From a virus, in UHGV virus genome UHGV-0131300: 13,883 nucleotides of DNA; one strand, 5' to 3'. The notes below the pieces were generated by a model, which saw nothing but the letters and a program-made list of their open reading frames with translations, made no database searches and was not told the DNA's origin. The position numbers were made by a program, and so were the translations under genes. Of this stretch, positions 1,570-11,992 are shown piece after piece (positions within the stretch are counted from its first letter, which is position 1; each line of letters opens with the position of its first letter).

Positions 1570-1664
1570 CTGAATAGATTGAGCCTAGCTCGACGGGGCG
1601 AAAAGCGGGAAGCCTTACCGCCTGGCTCAATCACAAAATAAGGCGCAGCGTAAAAGGTGACGCA

Positions 1665-4225: not shown

Positions 4226-4400
4226 CCAAAACCCCCAGCCGGGAAGCCGTTACAAGGATTCTCACGGGGCTGTAGTGACCGTTGAGCGCGTCGAGCATAA
4301 CCGAGTGACCTTTTACCGCGAGGGCTATCAGTCGCCATGTGTTCAGCCTTTGGAGAGATTCGTTAATGAGTTCGTGGAGGTGCGCCGTGATACTGAATGA
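4218..4400 (+). CDS. Small hypothetical protein (60 aa)
   Basis: ATG 4218 overlaps the end of the preceding gene (stop 4223..4225). Confidence 0.5.
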   Translation: MRNQNPQPGSRYKDSHGAVVTVERVEHNRVTFYREGYQSPCVQPLERFVNEFVEVRRDTE

Positions 4401-4840
4401 ACCTGCCGCCCAGAAAGAAGCCTTTAATCTGGCTGGCCTGTTAGCAAATGTTAACCCTTACAACCTGTCAAAACCTGACATTCATCGCCGCGCCGTTGCG
4501 ACAAATGACGACATTTTAGAGGCGTTTTCTGGGCTGAGAATTGGGCTGCGAATCCTAATAAATCCTAAGTTTTTTTCGCATTTCGTGACCAGTACGCGCG
4601 AGAAAGTTTTTTCTGACAACACTACGCCAGTGGAAAATTATTCCGCTGTCTTGAGTTTTCGGAGCATTACGCGCCCGTCTGGGGAGTTTTCGGACTATGT
4701 AAAAAAGGGCAGTACCTACAGGTCAGACCACCAGCAGGAAAATCAGTGTTATAGTCCCAGTGTTGCTGCAAAATCAGCAACCGGGCGTGGAAACCCGAAC
4801 ACACTCAGGGCGACACAGACGCCGAAAGCGTCTTTTTTTG
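4401..4840 (+). ncRNA. Candidate non-coding regulatory RNA or leader region ending in an intrinsic terminator
   Basis: No credible coding signal despite an open frame. Direct repeat gagttttcgga at 4653..4663 and 4684..4694; hairpin gttgctg/cagcaac at 4762..4781; terminator gacgc-cgaaa-gcgtc plus T7 at 4818..4839. Confidence 0.35.
4818..4839 (+). terminator. Rho-independent terminator inside the non-coding region
   Basis: gacgc (4818..4822), loop cgaaa, gcgtc (4828..4832), then ttttttt (4833..4839). Confidence 0.75.
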
Positions 4841-5028
4841 TGTCCGTTCACTACGCACATCAAATCAGCGGCCTCGTCCGTACTGTATCTATGGTGGCGT
4901 TAGTGGGGCTACGTTCGCGTAGGCCGGTTTCCTTTGTGTCCGGTATTTCCACCCCTGCTAACGTCACCGCCATTTCAGAGCGTGGAAACTCAGGCGGTGA
5001 CTCCTTAAACACAAAGGAGGCTGCCATC

Positions 5029-5217
5029 ATGGCTACTACCCCTACCCAAAATCCACAATTTATCTGGTTAATCGCAGCCGTTCGCCGCGACATGCCGACA
5101 ATTACCGCCAAAATCCATCATGTTGCTGCCGAAAGCGAGCGCGAAGCACGTCAAACTCTGGCACGAGATCACGTCTGTTTCTTTGCAGGCCGCATCCGTC
5201 TGGAGGTGGCAGCATGA
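5029..5217 (+). CDS. Small protein (62 aa), first gene of the replication operon; possibly Icd-like
   Basis: Strong SD aaggagg (5014..5020) 8 nt before ATG 5029. The upstream part of the 4339..5217 frame crosses a terminator and is rejected. The Icd-like family assignment is low confidence. Confidence 0.65.
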   Translation: MATTPTQNPQFIWLIAAVRRDMPTITAKIHHVAAESEREARQTLARDHVCFFAGRIRLEVAA

Positions 5218-6437: not shown

Positions 6438-6779
6438 ATGATTACCAAAAACTTCCGACTGAATGCGCTGGCGAACCAGTACGCGGCGGCACTTTACAAC
6501 CACATCACGGCTATCAATGGTGGCAATTACTTCATGGTTGACGCGGCAGGCCAGCAAATCCGTGTGGAACTGGTGGGCGGTATCAGTGGCACGCGCCAAC
6601 TTATTGATGGTTACGCGCTCGAAGCACTCAAAGAGACATACCCTCAGTGGGAAAGCATCGGGATCACCATGCTGGAGAAATGCGTCAATGCTGGTGGCCT
6701 GACTGATACCGGGCGCGAGATATGGCAAAGCATGATTAATGATATGGGCGCGACCGTGGCAGGAGGCAACCATGCGTAA
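6438..6779 (+). CDS. Hypothetical protein (113 aa)
   Basis: gaggggg SD; its stop overlaps the primase start (ATGcgTAA). Confidence 0.6.
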   Translation: MITKNFRLNALANQYAAALYNHITAINGGNYFMVDAAGQQIRVELVGGISGTRQLIDGYALEALKETYPQWESIGITMLEKCVNAGGLTDTGREIWQSMINDMGATVAGGNHA

Positions 6780-9213
6780 TATCGACCTTATCCGCGAAGT
6801 GACCAGCGCCGCAGCAGGGCGCTGGCCTTATGTGCTGGCTGGCCTGTCTATCGACGTGCCTGATTCATCACGCCGTCATGCCCCCTGCCCTGCATGTGGC
6901 GGTACGGATCGCTTCCGGTTCGACGACAACGGTCGCGGTAGCTTTATCTGTAACCAATGCGGCGCGGGCGACGGCTTAGACCTGATTAAGAAGGTGAACA
7001 ACTGCGACACCACAGAGGCGGCACAGCTTGCCGCTGATGTGCTGGGTATTGATTACCGGGCAGCGCAAACCGACCCGGCGGCAGCGAGCCAGAGAAGGGA
7101 GCAACTGGAAGCTGACCGCCAGCAGCGTGAGCAGGAGCGCCAGCAACAGGCAGCAGATGACGCAGAGCAGCGAAGGGCTACGTTTGCCCATCTGTATGCC
7201 GGAATGCGCCAGAGTGCCACACAGGGCGAATCTGATTACCTGCAATCAAAAGGGCTGACCGGGTTTAACTATCCGGTTATGCCGGATGGTTCGTTATTGC
7301 TGGAGCTGGTGGACGAATCCGGCGCAGTGGCAGCAGCGCAAACCATTACACCGCAGGGAGAGAAGCGACTCCTGACAGGTTCAGCAAAGCGCGGGGCATA
7401 TCACGCCGTAAACGCGCCAGAATCGCCGCAGAGCGTTTTAATTGCCGAGGGGCTGGCGACGGCCCTTTCAGTTCACCTGATGCGCCCGGACGCGCTGGCA
7501 GTGGCAGCAATTGACGCGGGCAACCTGCTACCCGTTGCCGAAGTGATGCGCCGGATATATCCAGCCACGCAGATTATCATTGCCGCAGATAACGACCACC
7601 AGCAGGACGAACAGGCGAACACGGGCAAAGATGCCGCAGAGAAAGCCGCCTTATCCGTGGCTGGCTGGGTGGCACTGCCGCCGACAGACTACAAAGCCGA
7701 CTGGGACGACTACCGCCAGCAAAACGGGCTGGAAGTCGCTACGGCTGCGTTTAACGATTCGATGTACCAGATTCAAGGGGAAGCCGTGAAACCGCGATTG
7801 CAAGCCATTGAGGGCGGTAAATCCCGCCGTAAAGCCGATGTCGGAGATATTGCACAAATGGCAGCCAGCCAGAAAGCGCGGTTGCTTTCATCTCGATGGG
7901 ATATGTTGGCGGTTAACCCTGATAGTGGCACTGTTTACTGCTACGAATCTGGCGTATGGGTGAAGCTACCAGACAGCGAATTAGAAAGGGTTATGGTGGC
8001 AATTTTCGACGAGCACGAAGCCCACTACACCGAAAAGGGGATTAAATCGGTTGTCGCAACCATGAAGCTGCAAATACCGGTAATTGGTGAGCGGAGCGGG
8101 GATCTGATTGGTTTTGATAACGGCGTTTATGACCTCGCTACGCAGACGTTTTCCGCCCATTCGCCGGGTAACTGGCTGATGAACCACAATGGGATCACCT
8201 ACACCCCGCCAGCGCCGGGGGAAAATATTACCACCAGCGCCCCCAATTTTACCCGTTGGCTGAATCATGCAACGGCTGGCGACCATCATAAGGCCGAGCG
8301 TATCAAAGCAGCCTTGTTTATGGTGCTGGCGAAGCGTCACGACTGGCAGCTATTCATTGAGATAACTGGCGAGGGCGGTAGTGGGAAATCCGTATTCAGC
8401 AGCATAGCAACCACGCTGGCAGGTGAACACAACACCGCCAGCGGTAGCATGATGACGCTGGACACCGCACGGGGACGGGCGCAGTTCGTAGGAAAAAGCC
8501 TGATTATTATGCCTGACCAGACCCGCTATGTTGGAGAGGGTGCGGGGATTAAAGCCATTACGGGCGGCGATCCGGTAGAGATTGATGGGAAATATGAAAA
8601 GCAGTTCACAACCGTGATAAATGCCGTTGTTATGGCAACCAATAACGAGCCGATGACATTCACGGAGCGAAACGGGGGCATTGCCCGCCGCCGCGTGATA
8701 TTCCCGTTTAATAACCCGGTATCAGACGCAGACAAAGACCCGGATTTAACCGCAAAAATCAGGCGAGAAATCCCGGTGATTATCCGCCACCTGCTAACCA
8801 CCTTTGCCGACCAGAACAAAGCAAAGTCACTATTACTTGAGCAGCGCGATTCTCAGGAGGCGCTAGACGTTAAACGCGGCACAGATCCGGTTATCGATAT
8901 GTGTGCGGCACTTTTTTTCATGAACGAACCCAAAGGCATGATGATGGGCGGAGGTACATGGGCAGGCCAGCCAGAGCCTAGGACGTATCTTTATCATCTT
9001 TATCTGGCGTTTATGGAGTATCACGGTTTGGGTAAACCGCTTTCCGTCAATAAGTTTTCACGCGCCATAAAATCAGCAGCAAAAGAGTACCGAGCCAGCT
9101 ACCTGACGAGAAGCATTAACGGCAGAGCGCAAACCAACGTTGGCTATAACGAGAAGGCTGAGGAGTTCATGCCACGCGCTTACGGTGTGGAGAGCGGGCA
9201 GAGTGATGATTGA
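6772..9213 (+). CDS. DNA primase-helicase, P4 alpha-like (zinc finger, TOPRIM-like region, D5-type NTPase)
   Basis: Zinc finger CPACGG...CNQCG near the N-terminus; acidic IIIAADNDHQQDE segment; Walker A ITGEGGSGKSVF; Walker B-like SLIIMPDQ. AGGAGG SD at 6761..6766 favours ATG 6772 over the track start at 6739. Confidence 0.9.
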   Translation: MRNIDLIREVTSAAAGRWPYVLAGLSIDVPDSSRRHAPCPACGGTDRFRFDDNGRGSFICNQCGAGDGLDLIKKVNNCDTTEAAQLAADVLGIDYRAAQTDPAAASQRREQLEADRQQREQERQQQAADDAEQRRATFAHLYAGMRQSATQGESDYLQSKGLTGFNYPVMPDGSLLLELVDESGAVAAAQTITPQGEKRLLTGSAKRGAYHAVNAPESPQSVLIAEGLATALSVHLMRPDALAVAAIDAGNLLPVAEVMRRIYPATQIIIAADNDHQQDEQANTGKDAAEKAALSVAGWVALPPTDYKADWDDYRQQNGLEVATAAFNDSMYQIQGEAVKPRLQAIEGGKSRRKADVGDIAQMAASQKARLLSSRWDMLAVNPDSGTVYCYESGVWVKLPDSELERVMVAIFDEHEAHYTEKGIKSVVATMKLQIPVIGERSGDLIGFDNGVYDLATQTFSAHSPGNWLMNHNGITYTPPAPGENITTSAPNFTRWLNHATAGDHHKAERIKAALFMVLAKRHDWQLFIEITGEGGSGKSVFSSIATTLAGEHNTASGSMMTLDTARGRAQFVGKSLIIMPDQTRYVGEGAGIKAITGGDPVEIDGKYEKQFTTVINAVVMATNNEPMTFTERNGGIARRRVIFPFNNPVSDADKDPDLTAKIRREIPVIIRHLLTTFADQNKAKSLLLEQRDSQEALDVKRGTDPVIDMCAALFFMNEPKGMMMGGGTWAGQPEPRTYLYHLYLAFMEYHGLGKPLSVNKFSRAIKSAAKEYRASYLTRSINGRAQTNVGYNEKAEEFMPRAYGVESGQSDD

Positions 9214-9232
9214 AACTTTTACGGCGGCACTT

Positions 9233-9478
9233 ATCCCTACTGCCCTACTAAAAACGAGACGAGGCCAGACGTAGCAAGGCTTTAAACTAGGTAGGGATAT
9301 ATATTTTTATCCCTACTTATCCCTACATATCCCTACCAAATAAAACAGGCAGTAAAATGCCGTTGAAGTGATTTAGTAGGGATAAGTAGGGTTATGTAGG
9401 GCAACAAAATTGAATGCCTACCAGTCTGAAAGCCTTGCCATTCGTGGCCTGAGCCAGTTAGTAGGGATTGGTAGGGAT
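9233..9478. repeat. Iteron array (putative replication origin): about 10 copies of GTAGGGAT / ATCCCTAC at 10-bp phasing around an AT-rich spacer
   Basis: atccctac at 9233..9240, 9309..9316, 9319..9326, 9329..9336. gtagggat-type copies at 9291..9298, 9376..9383, 9386..9393, 9396..9403, 9461..9468, 9471..9478. Lies immediately downstream of the primase gene. Confidence 0.75.
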
Positions 9479-9530
9479 ATTACACCCCCAAAAAGATTCT
9501 ATGGGGGGTAGCTTAAAACGAAGGTGGGCA

Positions 9531-9833
9531 ATGAATACAGAAACCAGCCAGAAAATGACCTATCAGGAGCGTGAAGCATTGAAGGGGTTTACTGACAAAC
9601 GCGCATTACAGGGCGACACCCAAAGCCTGCAAATGACCTTGAGGATGATCGCCCACTGGATGAGGCAGCCAGCAGAAATTGGATTTACAGAATATGCAAC
9701 ACACTGGACGGCGGCACAGGCCGGACGTGATGACGGGAATCACTCGACCGCAGCAATGGCGGAGCAGTGGCCTTTAAGGGAAGAAATGAAAATTAGCCCC
9801 GGAGGTAGTGACTACATGAGGAAATATCTATGA
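9531..9833 (+). CDS. Hypothetical protein (100 aa)
   Basis: Start chosen at ATG 9531 (aagg SD) rather than the track start at 9468, which lies in the iteron/hairpin region. Stop overlaps the next start. Confidence 0.5.
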   Translation: MNTETSQKMTYQEREALKGFTDKRALQGDTQSLQMTLRMIAHWMRQPAEIGFTEYATHWTAAQAGRDDGNHSTAAMAEQWPLREEMKISPGGSDYMRKYL

Positions 9834-10264
9834 CAGCACAAATTTCAGCATACGGGCGGCTGGTGGCAGATCCCCAGACCCGCACCACAACGAACGGTAA
9901 CAACATGGCTATGGCGCGGCTGGCGGTGTCTCTCCCCTGTAATGCGGCAGAGGCGGGAGAGTCAACCTTCTGGCTGGGCGTTATTGCTTTTGGGAAGCAG
10001 GCCGATGCGCTGGCGAAGCACCAGAAAGGCGACCTTGTGAGCGTGGCAGGCAATATGCAACTCAACCAGTGGACAGGGCAGGACGGCGGTACACAGCAGG
10101 GGTATCAGGTAGTAGCCGACAGTGTGATCAGCGCCAGAACGGTACGCCCCGGCGGGAAGGCAGGACAGCGGGGACAGGCAACGGACGCGCTGAGACGTGC
10201 GCAGCAGCCATCCCGTGATGAATACGACCAACGCCCACCATTCGACGATGAAACGCCATTCTGA
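9830..10264 (+). CDS. Single-stranded DNA-binding protein-like (OB fold with SSB-type acidic C-terminal tip)
   Basis: N-terminal region is alignable with bacterial SSB (GRLVADPQTRTTTNGNNMAMARLAV...FWLGVIAFGKQADALAKHQKGDLVSVAGNMQLNQWTGQDG). A Gly/Gln-rich linker ends in PPFDDETPF, compared with DFDDDIPF in E. coli SSB. Confidence 0.8.
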   Translation: MTAQISAYGRLVADPQTRTTTNGNNMAMARLAVSLPCNAAEAGESTFWLGVIAFGKQADALAKHQKGDLVSVAGNMQLNQWTGQDGGTQQGYQVVADSVISARTVRPGGKAGQRGQATDALRRAQQPSRDEYDQRPPFDDETPF

Positions 10265-10274
10265 GAGGGAAGAT

Positions 10275-10916
10275 ATGAGTACGCAACCCATCATTATTGA
10301 GTTCGGCAGCTATCGCTGGCCCAGACATCTTGCAATACATGAAGCAGGTCATGCGATAGCCGCATGGTTTTTCGGCATACAGGAGGTAGAAATTGCGTTA
10401 TCGGGTAATAACCGAGTGGCAAAAACCTACCTTAGCGGCGATGTTGATGAATGTGGAGCTGTCGCGGTATGGCACGCCAACTATCCACGGAATGTGGCTG
10501 AGGTTAAGTCTTACACCCTCTCGAATGATGACACCAGGTTACGTCTGATAGACCAGGTATGCCGGGCTATGGTTATCTCTCTGGCTGGTATCGTCGCGCA
10601 ATCACGCTATACGGAGGATGATATTGACGCACTGATGGAAACGTCCGGGAAAGCAGATATGAAAAATGTTCGTGATTTATCCGAGGTATACCGGGTAGCT
10701 GGTGGGGAGGACGCCGATATACAGCGAATATCCCTTTCCCGCGCTCAGGCGCTGATTACCCTGAAATGGTGGGATGTTATCGCGCTGGCGAAAATACTGG
10801 AGAACCGTAACCATATGCCCGCCAGAAACTTCCAGCGCATTATGGGCGATATCGACAAGCCTGTACCAAAGCCTCTGACGCTGGCTGAACTGGATGAATT
10901 GGTGGGTGAAGAATGA
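10275..10916 (+). CDS. HExxH zinc metallopeptidase-like protein (FtsH/M41-like HEAGHA motif), no AAA+ domain
   Basis: Motif HLAIHEAGHAIAAW near the N-terminus matches the FtsH protease-domain signature HEAGHA. gaggg SD before ATG 10275 (track start 10197 rejected). The protein is only 213 aa. Confidence 0.65.
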   Translation: MSTQPIIIEFGSYRWPRHLAIHEAGHAIAAWFFGIQEVEIALSGNNRVAKTYLSGDVDECGAVAVWHANYPRNVAEVKSYTLSNDDTRLRLIDQVCRAMVISLAGIVAQSRYTEDDIDALMETSGKADMKNVRDLSEVYRVAGGEDADIQRISLSRAQALITLKWWDVIALAKILENRNHMPARNFQRIMGDIDKPVPKPLTLAELDELVGEE

Positions 10917-11263
10917 AGCAATACATTCTGGCAGCCTGCCTGATCTCCTCTGCACCGGCACTATCTGCTATCCATTGTGGGGGCTTTACAATACAGCCAG
11001 ATCGTTATCGGACAACGATTAACGGCGATGTGGTTCATATTATTGATGCGCAATTTTACGGCGCGCCGCGAGACTTTAGCCAGGCCGCCATAAAGTTATT
11101 GCCTGATGCCATCACCACTACCGACAGGCAATACCGCCTGGAGACGCAGGGAGGCAATGCTTCGCTGGAGTTGATGACCAGAGAGCAACCGCCACGCGTG
11201 CTTAATCGTGAGCGCTGCGATTCCGGGCTAACAGGCTTTTACTGGTACTCGTCTGTGCCGTGA
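10913..11263 (+). CDS. Small secreted protein (Sec signal peptide)
   Basis: N-terminus MKQYILAACLISSAPALSA has the positive, hydrophobic and AxA pattern of a signal peptide. ATGA overlap with the peptidase gene. Confidence 0.6.
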   Translation: MKQYILAACLISSAPALSAIHCGGFTIQPDRYRTTINGDVVHIIDAQFYGAPRDFSQAAIKLLPDAITTTDRQYRLETQGGNASLELMTREQPPRVLNRERCDSGLTGFYWYSSVP

Positions 11264-11389
11264 GGTTCGCACCGAACGCAGGCTAAAATACTAGACTGTT
11301 CTTGACAGATTTTAAACCCTCGTAGCGCTAAACCCGCGCCAGCAGAGGGCTGGAAGCCAGAGCGTGATTTAGGCCGTCCAGAATATTCA

Positions 11390-11505
11390 GGTTCGCGCCA
11401 CTGGTTCGCAGTGCGCAAAATAGTGCGCAATTTACAGTAAAATACGCATATTATTTCGTATTCAATTTGCGCACCGTTCGCAGTTAATGCGCAGTAATTC
11501 GCAGG
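11390..11505. promoter_or_regulatory. Operator-like region: multiple TGCGCA palindromes and TTCGCAG repeats around an AT-rich inverted repeat
   Basis: TGCGCA at 11411..11416, 11424..11429, 11468..11473, 11488..11493. TTCGCAG at 11405..11411, 11477..11483, 11498..11504. Inverted repeat aatacg (11441..11446) / cgtatt (11456..11461) flanks catattattt. A TTGACA sits at 11302..11307. Confidence 0.5.
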
Positions 11506-11515
11506 AGGCCAGCCA

Positions 11516-11992
11516 GTGAGAGACAGAACGCGCAGCTATACCACCGACCTGCCCCGCATAGGGTTGCCATTCCTTTCGCACATGCGTAGCAGGCTGGCGG
11601 ATGCTGAACCGGGTACGCAGCTTTATACCCAGACCGAAAGCGGAACGTTGTATACCTTCCGGCAAGCCGACAGCTACGCCATGACAATCAACGGCGTGAC
11701 GCGGGCGATTCGCACCACAACCACACAGGCCGGGTATGGCGTGCGGGAATGGTACGTTTGTCCCCACTGTATGAAACGGGTGGCGAAGCTGTATATTGGC
11801 AAAAAAGATCATCCGTATGACTTCCCGAAGCCAAAGGGGATGCGCTGGGCTACGTTTGACAGGAAGCGGGCAGAATTATCAGTTATGGAGATGGCTTACT
11901 GGCAGGCATTCAGCCCGGTAGTGGGCAGAATCACGGGCGTTATTGAGCGTAAAGCAGGAAAAGCAGCCAGAGGCATTGGCCTGACTCTATAA
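11516..11992 (+). CDS. Hypothetical protein (158 aa) with one CPHC motif
   Basis: GTG start with AGGAGG SD at 11503..11508. Contains REWYVCPHCMKRVAKLY. No family assigned. Confidence 0.6.
   Translation: MRDRTRSYTTDLPRIGLPFLSHMRSRLADAEPGTQLYTQTESGTLYTFRQADSYAMTINGVTRAIRTTTTQAGYGVREWYVCPHCMKRVAKLYIGKKDHPYDFPKPKGMRWATFDRKRAELSVMEMAYWQAFSPVVGRITGVIERKAGKAARGIGLTL

Follow-up and report, generated by a model that had tools for sequence, protein, structure and literature searches.

Within the 13,883-nucleotide stretch of the virus genome UHGV-0131300 analysed here (hereafter, the window) we focused on a protein of 213 amino acids (aa) that carries the HEAGHA signature of FtsH-type peptidases. Judging by its structural model and its sequence relatives, it is a soluble (as predicted), free-standing FtsH-type M41-fold domain, devoid of both an ATPase and a membrane anchor (hereafter, the M41-like protein). 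Its gene follows that of a single-stranded DNA (ssDNA)-binding protein (SSB) and precedes that of a small protein with a predicted signal peptide (ORF3, after open reading frame, ORF), all three being situated just downstream of a presumed replication origin in an integrated, satellite-like island of the P4 type. FtsH protease domains are usually seen as part of a machine that is anchored in the membrane and driven by ATP, in which they make up the proteolytic chamber.

The FtsH-type fold and its catalytic residues

The assignment is carried by the fold and by a family profile. The HEAGHA motif occupies residues 22-27, inside a predicted helix (residues 17-32), and the AlphaFold2 model obtained with 19 orthologues reached a predicted local distance difference test (pLDDT) value of 79.6 and a predicted template modelling (pTM) score of 0.81. 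When the model was searched with Foldseek, the top 29 matches were all FtsH-family chains (FtsH, AFG3L2, FtsHi), at marginal E-values (1e-3 to 3e-2) and with 13-20% identity to FtsH, and the match spanned the whole FtsH protease domain, C-terminal helices included. An exhaustive profile search in 1.84 billion representative proteins recovered 66 family members at E <= 1e-3 (mostly 180-230 aa), 28 of which were used to build an alignment and profile (A2; 17% mean column identity). The Pfam model Peptidase_M41 matches 10 of these 28 relatives (best E 1e-13), and the A2 profile in turn matches Thermus thermophilus FtsH (E 2.5e-10, with both the HEAGHA helix and the helices of the C-terminus in the alignment) as well as genuine AAA+/M41 FtsH proteins; a weaker segment pairs 'LAG..AE....SG..D' of the family with 'LAGRAAEE....GAEND' of FtsH. 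The sequence-only reading, made earlier from the letters of the window, had proposed an FtsH-type M41 peptidase, and the structural model and the A2 profile agree with it, the fold found being that of a protease and the zinc ligands plausible.

A HEAGH motif taken alone could be due to chance; because fold and profile evidence accompany it, we do not regard it as a chance motif here. That the motif by itself does not identify the family is illustrated by plant VIR3, a membrane protein that has HEAGH and is without an ATPase (PMC9166295).

The absence of an ATPase and of a membrane anchor, likewise proposed from the sequence, held: no AAA+ match was obtained, and the maximal 19-residue hydropathy of the M41-like protein is 1.49, so that no transmembrane segment is predicted. 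The lone Pfam match, to an M50B-like family (E 0.0094), lies below the cut-off and covers the HExxH helix only; an M50B membrane protease was rejected, given this confinement of a weak match and the lack of a transmembrane segment.

Compared with the FtsH protease domain (MEROPS M41, PF01434; e.g., PDB 2di4, 2dhr, 7tdo), the M41-like protein shares the HEAGHA helix, the 'LAG-x-x-A-[EQ]' helix and the C-terminal helices, and its family has, downstream, an invariant Asp in a G-x-x-D context similar to that of the third zinc ligand of FtsH. It differs from FtsH in lacking the AAA+ ATPase, the transmembrane helices and the periplasmic domain, in its low identity and sub-threshold Pfam score, in having Q in place of Glu after the LAG motif and in being encoded on a mobile island.

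Relatives of the same build are already present in databases. The best BFVD match (Foldseek E 8.9e-4, template modelling score 0.55) is UniProt A0A6J5RJ76, a 214-aa protein of an uncultured phage named 'Peptidase M41 domain-containing', and both this protein and the Dickeya orthologue P0013 have the size and the single-domain architecture of the window protein; the M41 name is an automatic database label. A word-indexed search returned 24 clusters, nearly all enterobacterial, one of which is named 'Peptidase M41 domain-containing protein' in UniRef. The description of a stand-alone M41 protein as unusual is fair, then, if not absolute, as free-standing proteins of about 214 aa had been annotated automatically before. 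Searches with the M41-like sequence yielded nothing in PHROGs or PADLOC, only a chance-level match in NCBIfam (E 0.1), and no tblastn match in either 50,697 phage records or 72,556 plasmids.

Seven columns of the A2 alignment are invariant (H22, E23, H26, G105, A108, D128 and A172), and every one of the 59 representatives spanning the N-terminal region keeps HExxH. From this conservation we regard H22, H26 and D128 as putative zinc ligands and E23 as the putative catalytic base. D128 (within 'SGKADM') is invariant in the 28 sequences and aligns to the Asp of T. thermophilus FtsH 'GAENDF' through a hidden Markov model (HMM) segment that is non-significant when taken alone. The M41-like gene is under purifying selection, as pairwise ratios of nonsynonymous to synonymous substitution rates (dN/dS) against orthologues range from 0.13 to 0.24.

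Distribution and changing partners

The M41-like domain is a recurring, rare part of the replication-proximal core of enterobacterial satellites, in which its partners change by lineage. Close copies were found in 28 of 5,426 complete E. coli genomes (all chromosomal), and the relatives with a readable context lie mostly in enterobacterial satellite-like islands; the surroundings of two very distant relatives (L026, L027) gave no information. In E. coli, Klebsiella, Serratia, Dickeya, Pectobacterium and a genome labelled Pseudomonas graminis, an SSB gene stands 5' of the M41-like gene, beside the primase and the presumed origin; a gene for a 331-aa protein is inserted between the two in Dickeya and a ProQ-like gene in Pectobacterium, and the 3' position is taken, by lineage, by ORF3, by PerC or by a 356-aa protein. 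The sequence-only reading had treated SSB, peptidase and secreted protein as a single functional unit of three genes, a proposal weakened by the varying 3' gene, by the insertions in Dickeya and Pectobacterium, by a frameshifted SSB in Serratia and by the finding of distant M41-like relatives beside other partners, without an SSB.

These distant relatives (21-27% identity) were recovered on IMG/VR contigs, where the M41-like gene lies 3' of a P4-type primase and of a conserved protein of ~185 aa (mostly also of a 58-aa protein), and is followed by DUF2280/terS, cement and major-capsid genes; the contigs are without an SSB gene. The elements concerned are capsid-forming and satellite-like. Their gene order, with the peptidase 5' of DUF2280/terS and capsid genes, prompted the idea of a capsid maturation protease, which we rejected for the window, its island being without capsid genes. 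The ~185-aa protein carries the motif DAEFMRLVRAVAPKY and has no Pfam or PHROG match (L012, 5041-5962; L013, L014-L016 and L018; L023/L024, 6535-7441). From its sequence, the neighbour protein of 55-58 aa looks like a ribbon-helix-helix (RHH) DNA binder, the assignment of the 58-aa form having been made by eye, with no family match. The window has neither the ~185-aa nor the 58-aa protein.

In Salmonella, an island inserted at this yicC site too encodes the conserved protein (183 aa here), the 58-aa protein, an M41-like protein of 186 aa and an ORF3 homologue; identity with the window amounts to 32% for the M41-like protein and 59% for ORF3, and the ATGA overlap of the pair recurs. In the locus labelled Pseudomonas graminis (L021, 7370-7990), a 55-aa RHH-like gene is followed by an SSB gene without its N-terminal ~30 residues, the M41-like gene and ORF3, which makes this locus a hybrid of the two upstream-partner arrangements. 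The SSB-M41 block also occurs with two helicase modules, D5_N/DUF5906/Pox_D5 in the window and DUF927 in most relatives (L002, L005, L019, L022), and the replication region is therefore a mosaic.

Outside this setting, the domain was found as the C-terminal part of three metagenomic proteins of 400-480 aa (P0064, P0069, P0079), where it is fused to an N-terminal phage tail-assembly-protein region (phrog_32, plus the N-terminal portion of phrog_31) that includes a hydrophobic segment.

Proposed function and its alternatives

Starting from the demonstrated gene identities, fold, conservation of catalytic residues, purifying selection, tight packing and synteny, we lean, with reserve, towards a reading in which a satellite SSB, an ATP-independent M41 peptidase and a lineage-specific exported ORF3 are assembled in one origin-proximal block. 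The segment would represent the conserved portion, close to the origin, of an integrated satellite-like island of the P4 type, whose SSB would coat the island's replication intermediates arising from the adjacent origin and whose inherited acidic SSB tip may recruit the same partners as host SSB. The M41-like protein, from whose sequence we infer peptidase activity, would be a zinc endopeptidase that works without ATP and benefits the island by cutting a specific protein or tail that is unstructured; an accessible, unstructured target and independence from ATP are proposed because the protein is without an unfoldase, and the candidate targets are a regulator and proteins of the helper phage or of the host. 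ORF3 would be an accessory protein destined for export, whose co-translation with the peptidase would be limited to some lineages.

Several observations weigh against this reading. The M41-like protein of the window stays below the Pfam threshold, with no match to PF01434, and searches of PDB sequences with the single sequence and with a narrow-family profile returned no FtsH and only chance-level dehydrogenases (E ~0.5). The correspondence between D128 and the third zinc ligand of FtsH depends on the non-significant HMM segment mentioned above, and the window subfamily carries Q109 in place of the Glu shown by FtsH and most relatives, a residue whose counterpart in E. coli FtsH (E479) is listed as functionally important (PMC6629908). 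One orthologue (P0016) has QEAGH, and two of the 28 E. coli copies (H42, H43) are 5'-truncated, retaining only query bases 281-642 and hence no HEAGH. Finally, Serratia has a frameshifted SSB and L021 a truncated one, and the M41-like gene is intact in both; SSB and peptidase need not work together. As a separate observation, a matching cluster of 115-aa C-terminal fragments (P0026) is present on 100 contigs.

A possible, though fairly unlikely, alternative is a regulator-cleaving or anti-defence peptidase that acts together with ssDNA or SSB in the manner of ImmA/IrrE/CapP or of ArdC, so that an island or helper repressor, or a host defence protein, would be cut when replication yields ssDNA. 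ImmA, IrrE and CapP (M78) are metallopeptidases that cut a small DNA-binding repressor; they resemble the M41-like protein in being small HExxH peptidases of a mobile element's regulatory/replication region, a resemblance to which the related islands add an adjoining small putative DNA-binding protein. The M41-like protein nevertheless represents a different peptidase family, has no PF06114 match and adjoins no repressor-like gene in the window. ArdC of plasmid R388, an anti-restriction protein composed of an ssDNA-binding domain and a metalloprotease, provides a precedent for this combination on a mobile element (PMC7213743). The analogy is functional only, as two genes of the window stand against one polypeptide in ArdC, the folds of both domains are unrelated and neither the SSB nor the M41-like protein matches ArdC-family models of Pfam or NCBIfam. 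The SSB-M41 adjacency, kept across genera, speaks for such a peptidase, as do the lineages in which the M41-like gene lies directly 3' of the 55-58-aa protein (RHH-like by sequence judgement) and is accompanied by the 183-aa protein, and the three tail-assembly fusions, which suggest that the domain acts upon the host during infection. On the other hand, homology to M78/ImmA or ArdC domains and PADLOC matches were both lacking, the RHH-like gene (assigned by eye and without a family match) is absent from the window, and two lineages with a decayed SSB keep the peptidase.

The glutamine at position 109, the QEAGH orthologue and the truncated E. coli copies would also suit an inactive remnant or scaffold, be it a pseudo-protease with a structural or binding role, like chloroplast FtsHi (inactive FtsHi subunits are several of the top structural matches), or a decaying passenger gene. 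We consider this quite unlikely, for HExxH and D128 do not vary even among highly divergent relatives, the dN/dS values denote purifying selection, and the relatives have E, Q or N at position 109, as would suit a residue of the second shell.

It is very unlikely, in our judgement, that the M41-like gene and the exported ORF3 are a two-gene cargo (a self-contained accessory module, e.g., for superinfection exclusion or abortive infection) that has nothing to do with SSB or replication. The ATGA-coupled pair does recur in the Salmonella island, at the identities given above, and the M41-ORF3 pair does so in L021. Nonetheless, PerC or the 356-aa protein replaces ORF3 in most lineages, PADLOC gave no match, the two proteins are predicted to reside in different places (the M41-like protein in the cytoplasm, ORF3 exported) and the M41-like gene belongs to the conserved origin-adjacent block, outside the variable region.

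That the protein modulates host FtsH, by joining or capping its hexamer or by titrating substrates or adaptors, and so alters the turnover of FtsH clients (e.g., phage lysis-lysogeny regulators) in favour of the satellite, is highly improbable: the fold spans the entire FtsH protease domain, C-terminal helices included, and this domain forms a hexameric ring in FtsH (general structural knowledge), but at 13-20% identity conserved interfaces are unlikely and pure poisoning would not need strictly conserved catalytic residues.

A more far-reaching reading would make the free-standing M41 domains a new class of ATP-independent effector peptidases of phage satellites (tail-fused in phages), which would cut a specific host, helper-phage or regulatory protein during take-over and be targeted or activated through the ssDNA or DNA-bound context provided by SSB or by the RHH-like and 183-aa proteins; we offer it tentatively and hold it to be unlikely. 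The fold and both protein families are already known, and free-standing M41 domains are already auto-labelled in databases; in the searchable literature, we found no experimental work on any of these domains, no paper on free-standing forms from phages or satellites and no report that links them to P4-type satellites or to SSB. A predicted soluble FtsH-type domain that is without an ATPase, has strictly conserved catalytic residues and lies in a satellite core suggests lone action on a defined target. If found, this target could reveal a new satellite route to the control of induction, the exploitation of helper phages or the disarming of the host, and would give a function to a family labelled only 'M41 domain-containing' or 'hypothetical'. 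We view the finding as a sound experimental lead that overturns nothing.

The island, its presumed origin and the companion genes

Over positions 9200-11500 the window is 100% identical to an island on the chromosome of E. coli ECONIH4 and of seven other complete genomes, and in ECONIH4 the insertion is flanked by yicC and dinD. According to the Prokaryotic Genome Annotation Pipeline (PGAP), the ECONIH4 island starts with a tyrosine integrase, a 321-aa protein, an AlpA-like helix-turn-helix protein and an AntA/AntB protein, continues with DUF4222, an Icd-like protein, several small ORFs and a 'phage/plasmid primase, P4 family', and has, 3' of the primase, the genes described here and then a variable tail, in which a pRiA4b ORF-3 family protein is encoded. 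The primase-helicase (6739-9213) contains the Pfam domains Zn_Ribbon_Prim, Toprim_3, D5_N, DUF5906 and Pox_D5. Because of the annotation of the identical copy, these primase domains and the RNAs detected with Rfam (Table 1), we conclude that the element is a P4-type integrated satellite-like island with integrase, AlpA, alpha-type primase-helicase, C4/isrK RNA immunity and Icd. The three ORFs of the sequence-only reading correspond to PGAP calls in the ECONIH4 copy, which match the SSB, M41-like and ORF3 genes of the window.

Table 1. Features located in the window, with their positions and the basis on which each was called.
Feature	Coordinates	Strand or orientation	Basis or remarks
int-alpA RNA (RF02996)	1578-1644		Rfam, 60.6 bits, above gathering score; integrase gene on one side, 321-aa gene on the other
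c4-a1b1	4749-4801		Rfam, above gathering score
isrK	4762-4838		Rfam, above gathering score
C4 antisense RNA	4887-4974		Rfam, above gathering score
Iteron cluster, GTAGGGAT	9229-9480	both orientations	8 exact and 2 one-mismatch copies
100-aa hypothetical protein, first gene of the chain	9531-9833	+	PGAP CDS
SSB, 144 aa	9830-10264	+	profile matches
Stand-alone FtsH-type M41-fold protein (predicted), 213 aa	10275-10916	+	fold and family profile
ORF3, small exported protein (predicted), 116-aa precursor	10913-11263	+	signal-peptide pattern

With the P4 satellite the island has in common the tyrosine integrase, AlpA, the C4/CI-type antisense RNA with Icd and the alpha-type primase-helicase followed by iterons. 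It differs from P4 in its iteron (GTAGGGAT against TGTTCACC in P4), in having no annotated Psu, Delta or Sid and in carrying the SSB and M41-like genes, neither of which P4 is known to have. The PGAP annotation of the complete identical island holds no psu, delta or sid, not every ORF having been profile-scanned.

The iterons, spaced partly in 10-bp phase, lie just upstream of four tightly packed genes (9531-11263), as the sequence-only reading had placed them. The window holds 16 matches to GTAGGGAT in total, a number that none of 200 shuffles reached. By analogy with the arrangement in P4 (ori/crr repeats), the cluster is presumed to be the origin of replication, to which the P4-type primase-helicase, encoded directly 5' of it, would bind. 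In the Salmonella island (L023, 6040-6160), unlike the window with its GTAGGGAT iterons, P4-type TTCACC/TGTTCACC-like repeats are located directly 3' of the integrase gene.

The earlier proposal of a coupled operon stands as regards tight packing and ATGA overlaps; the genes are four rather than three, and SSB and M41-like genes are separated by a gap. The overlaps tie the stop of the 100-aa ORF to the start of SSB (9830-9833) and the stop of the M41-like gene to the start of ORF3 (10913-10916), and a 10-nt spacer (GAGGGAAGAT) separates the SSB stop (10264) from the M41-like start (10275). A consensus scan of 9200-11600 detected neither a sigma-70-like promoter nor an intrinsic terminator, which lends weak support to a single transcript; co-transcription of the four genes is putative, as is any functional link among them. 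The 100-aa protein had weak family matches only (phrog_4935, E 2.5e-4; DUF5551, E 0.012); the loci of Klebsiella, Serratia, Dickeya and Pectobacterium have no gene called at its position, and the ORF is lineage-specific.

Neither the SSB nor the exported protein is out of the ordinary on a mobile element. As first read, the former is an SSB: it scores above the cut-offs of Pfam SSB (PF00436; 62.1 bits against 26, E 5.6e-17) and TIGR00621 (57.1 against 53.95), matches phrog_44 (E 6.7e-34) and ends in ...PPFDDETPF. Its architecture consists of an oligonucleotide/oligosaccharide-binding (OB) fold, a short linker and the acidic tip FDDETPF, and the OB domain has 31% identity to E. coli SSB. Residues W48, F54 and W81 align to W54, F60 and W88 of E. 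coli SSB and are invariant among island SSBs; the OB fold, these three residues and an acidic tip ending in PF are shared with SSBs of E. coli, plasmids and phages (PF00436). In contrast to E. coli SSB, the window protein is shorter (144 vs 178 aa), has a short linker and a shortened W40 loop with no equivalent aromatic, and has Leu in place of the tetramer-interface His55. An F-x-D-x-x-P-F ending is kept in four of five related island SSBs (e.g., FRDDTPF, FDDGTPF, FSDDAPF), and by its sequence the protein is a true member of the SSB family with a canonical, inherited acidic tip. The earlier suggestion that this tip mimics the host SSB tail was thus discarded: it is the ancestral partner-docking motif of SSBs, and recruitment of host partners is therefore at least as likely as competition for them. 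In Serratia proteamaculans (L002-L004, 9571-10030) the SSB frameshift is present in three assemblies, with the tail FNDEAPF in another frame and the stop codon after the tail lost.

ORF3 begins with a hydrophobic stretch (hydropathy 1.65 at residues 5-23) followed by ALSA|I, as expected of a Sec signal peptide (roughly residues 1-19) and in agreement with the signal peptide first proposed. This pattern, rather than the sequence, is kept in 11 of 12 ORF3 homologues (ending in A-x-A, with a mature start I-[HQ]-C-G), and two Cys are invariant or nearly so. The family comprises 16 clusters, enterobacterial where the organism is named by the source (one labelled Pseudomonas graminis), and has no Pfam or PDB relative; the AlphaFold2 model depicts an eight-stranded beta domain with residues 1-19 unstructured, and dN/dS is 0.24. 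The M41-ORF3 pair is found also in Salmonella and L021. The simplest reading of sequence and model is that ORF3 is a predicted exported accessory protein and lineage-specific cargo.

Further upstream, the C4, isrK and c4-a1b1 sites (4749-4974) fall within a long ORF (4339-5217, 'Icd-like' in PGAP) that probably consists mostly of RNA genes, the real Icd coding sequence being likely restricted to its C-terminal part. PADLOC-DB 2.0 gave no match for the 100-aa ORF, the SSB, the M41-like protein, ORF3 or the next genes. The sole PADLOC match of the window is a weak one (E 0.002), of the 321-aa protein beside the integrase (1665-2630) to the candidate system PDC-S31. In the ECONIH4 copy this gene is split from alpA by an ISSpu7-family, IS1634-like element (L001, 5736-7346), which the window does not have.

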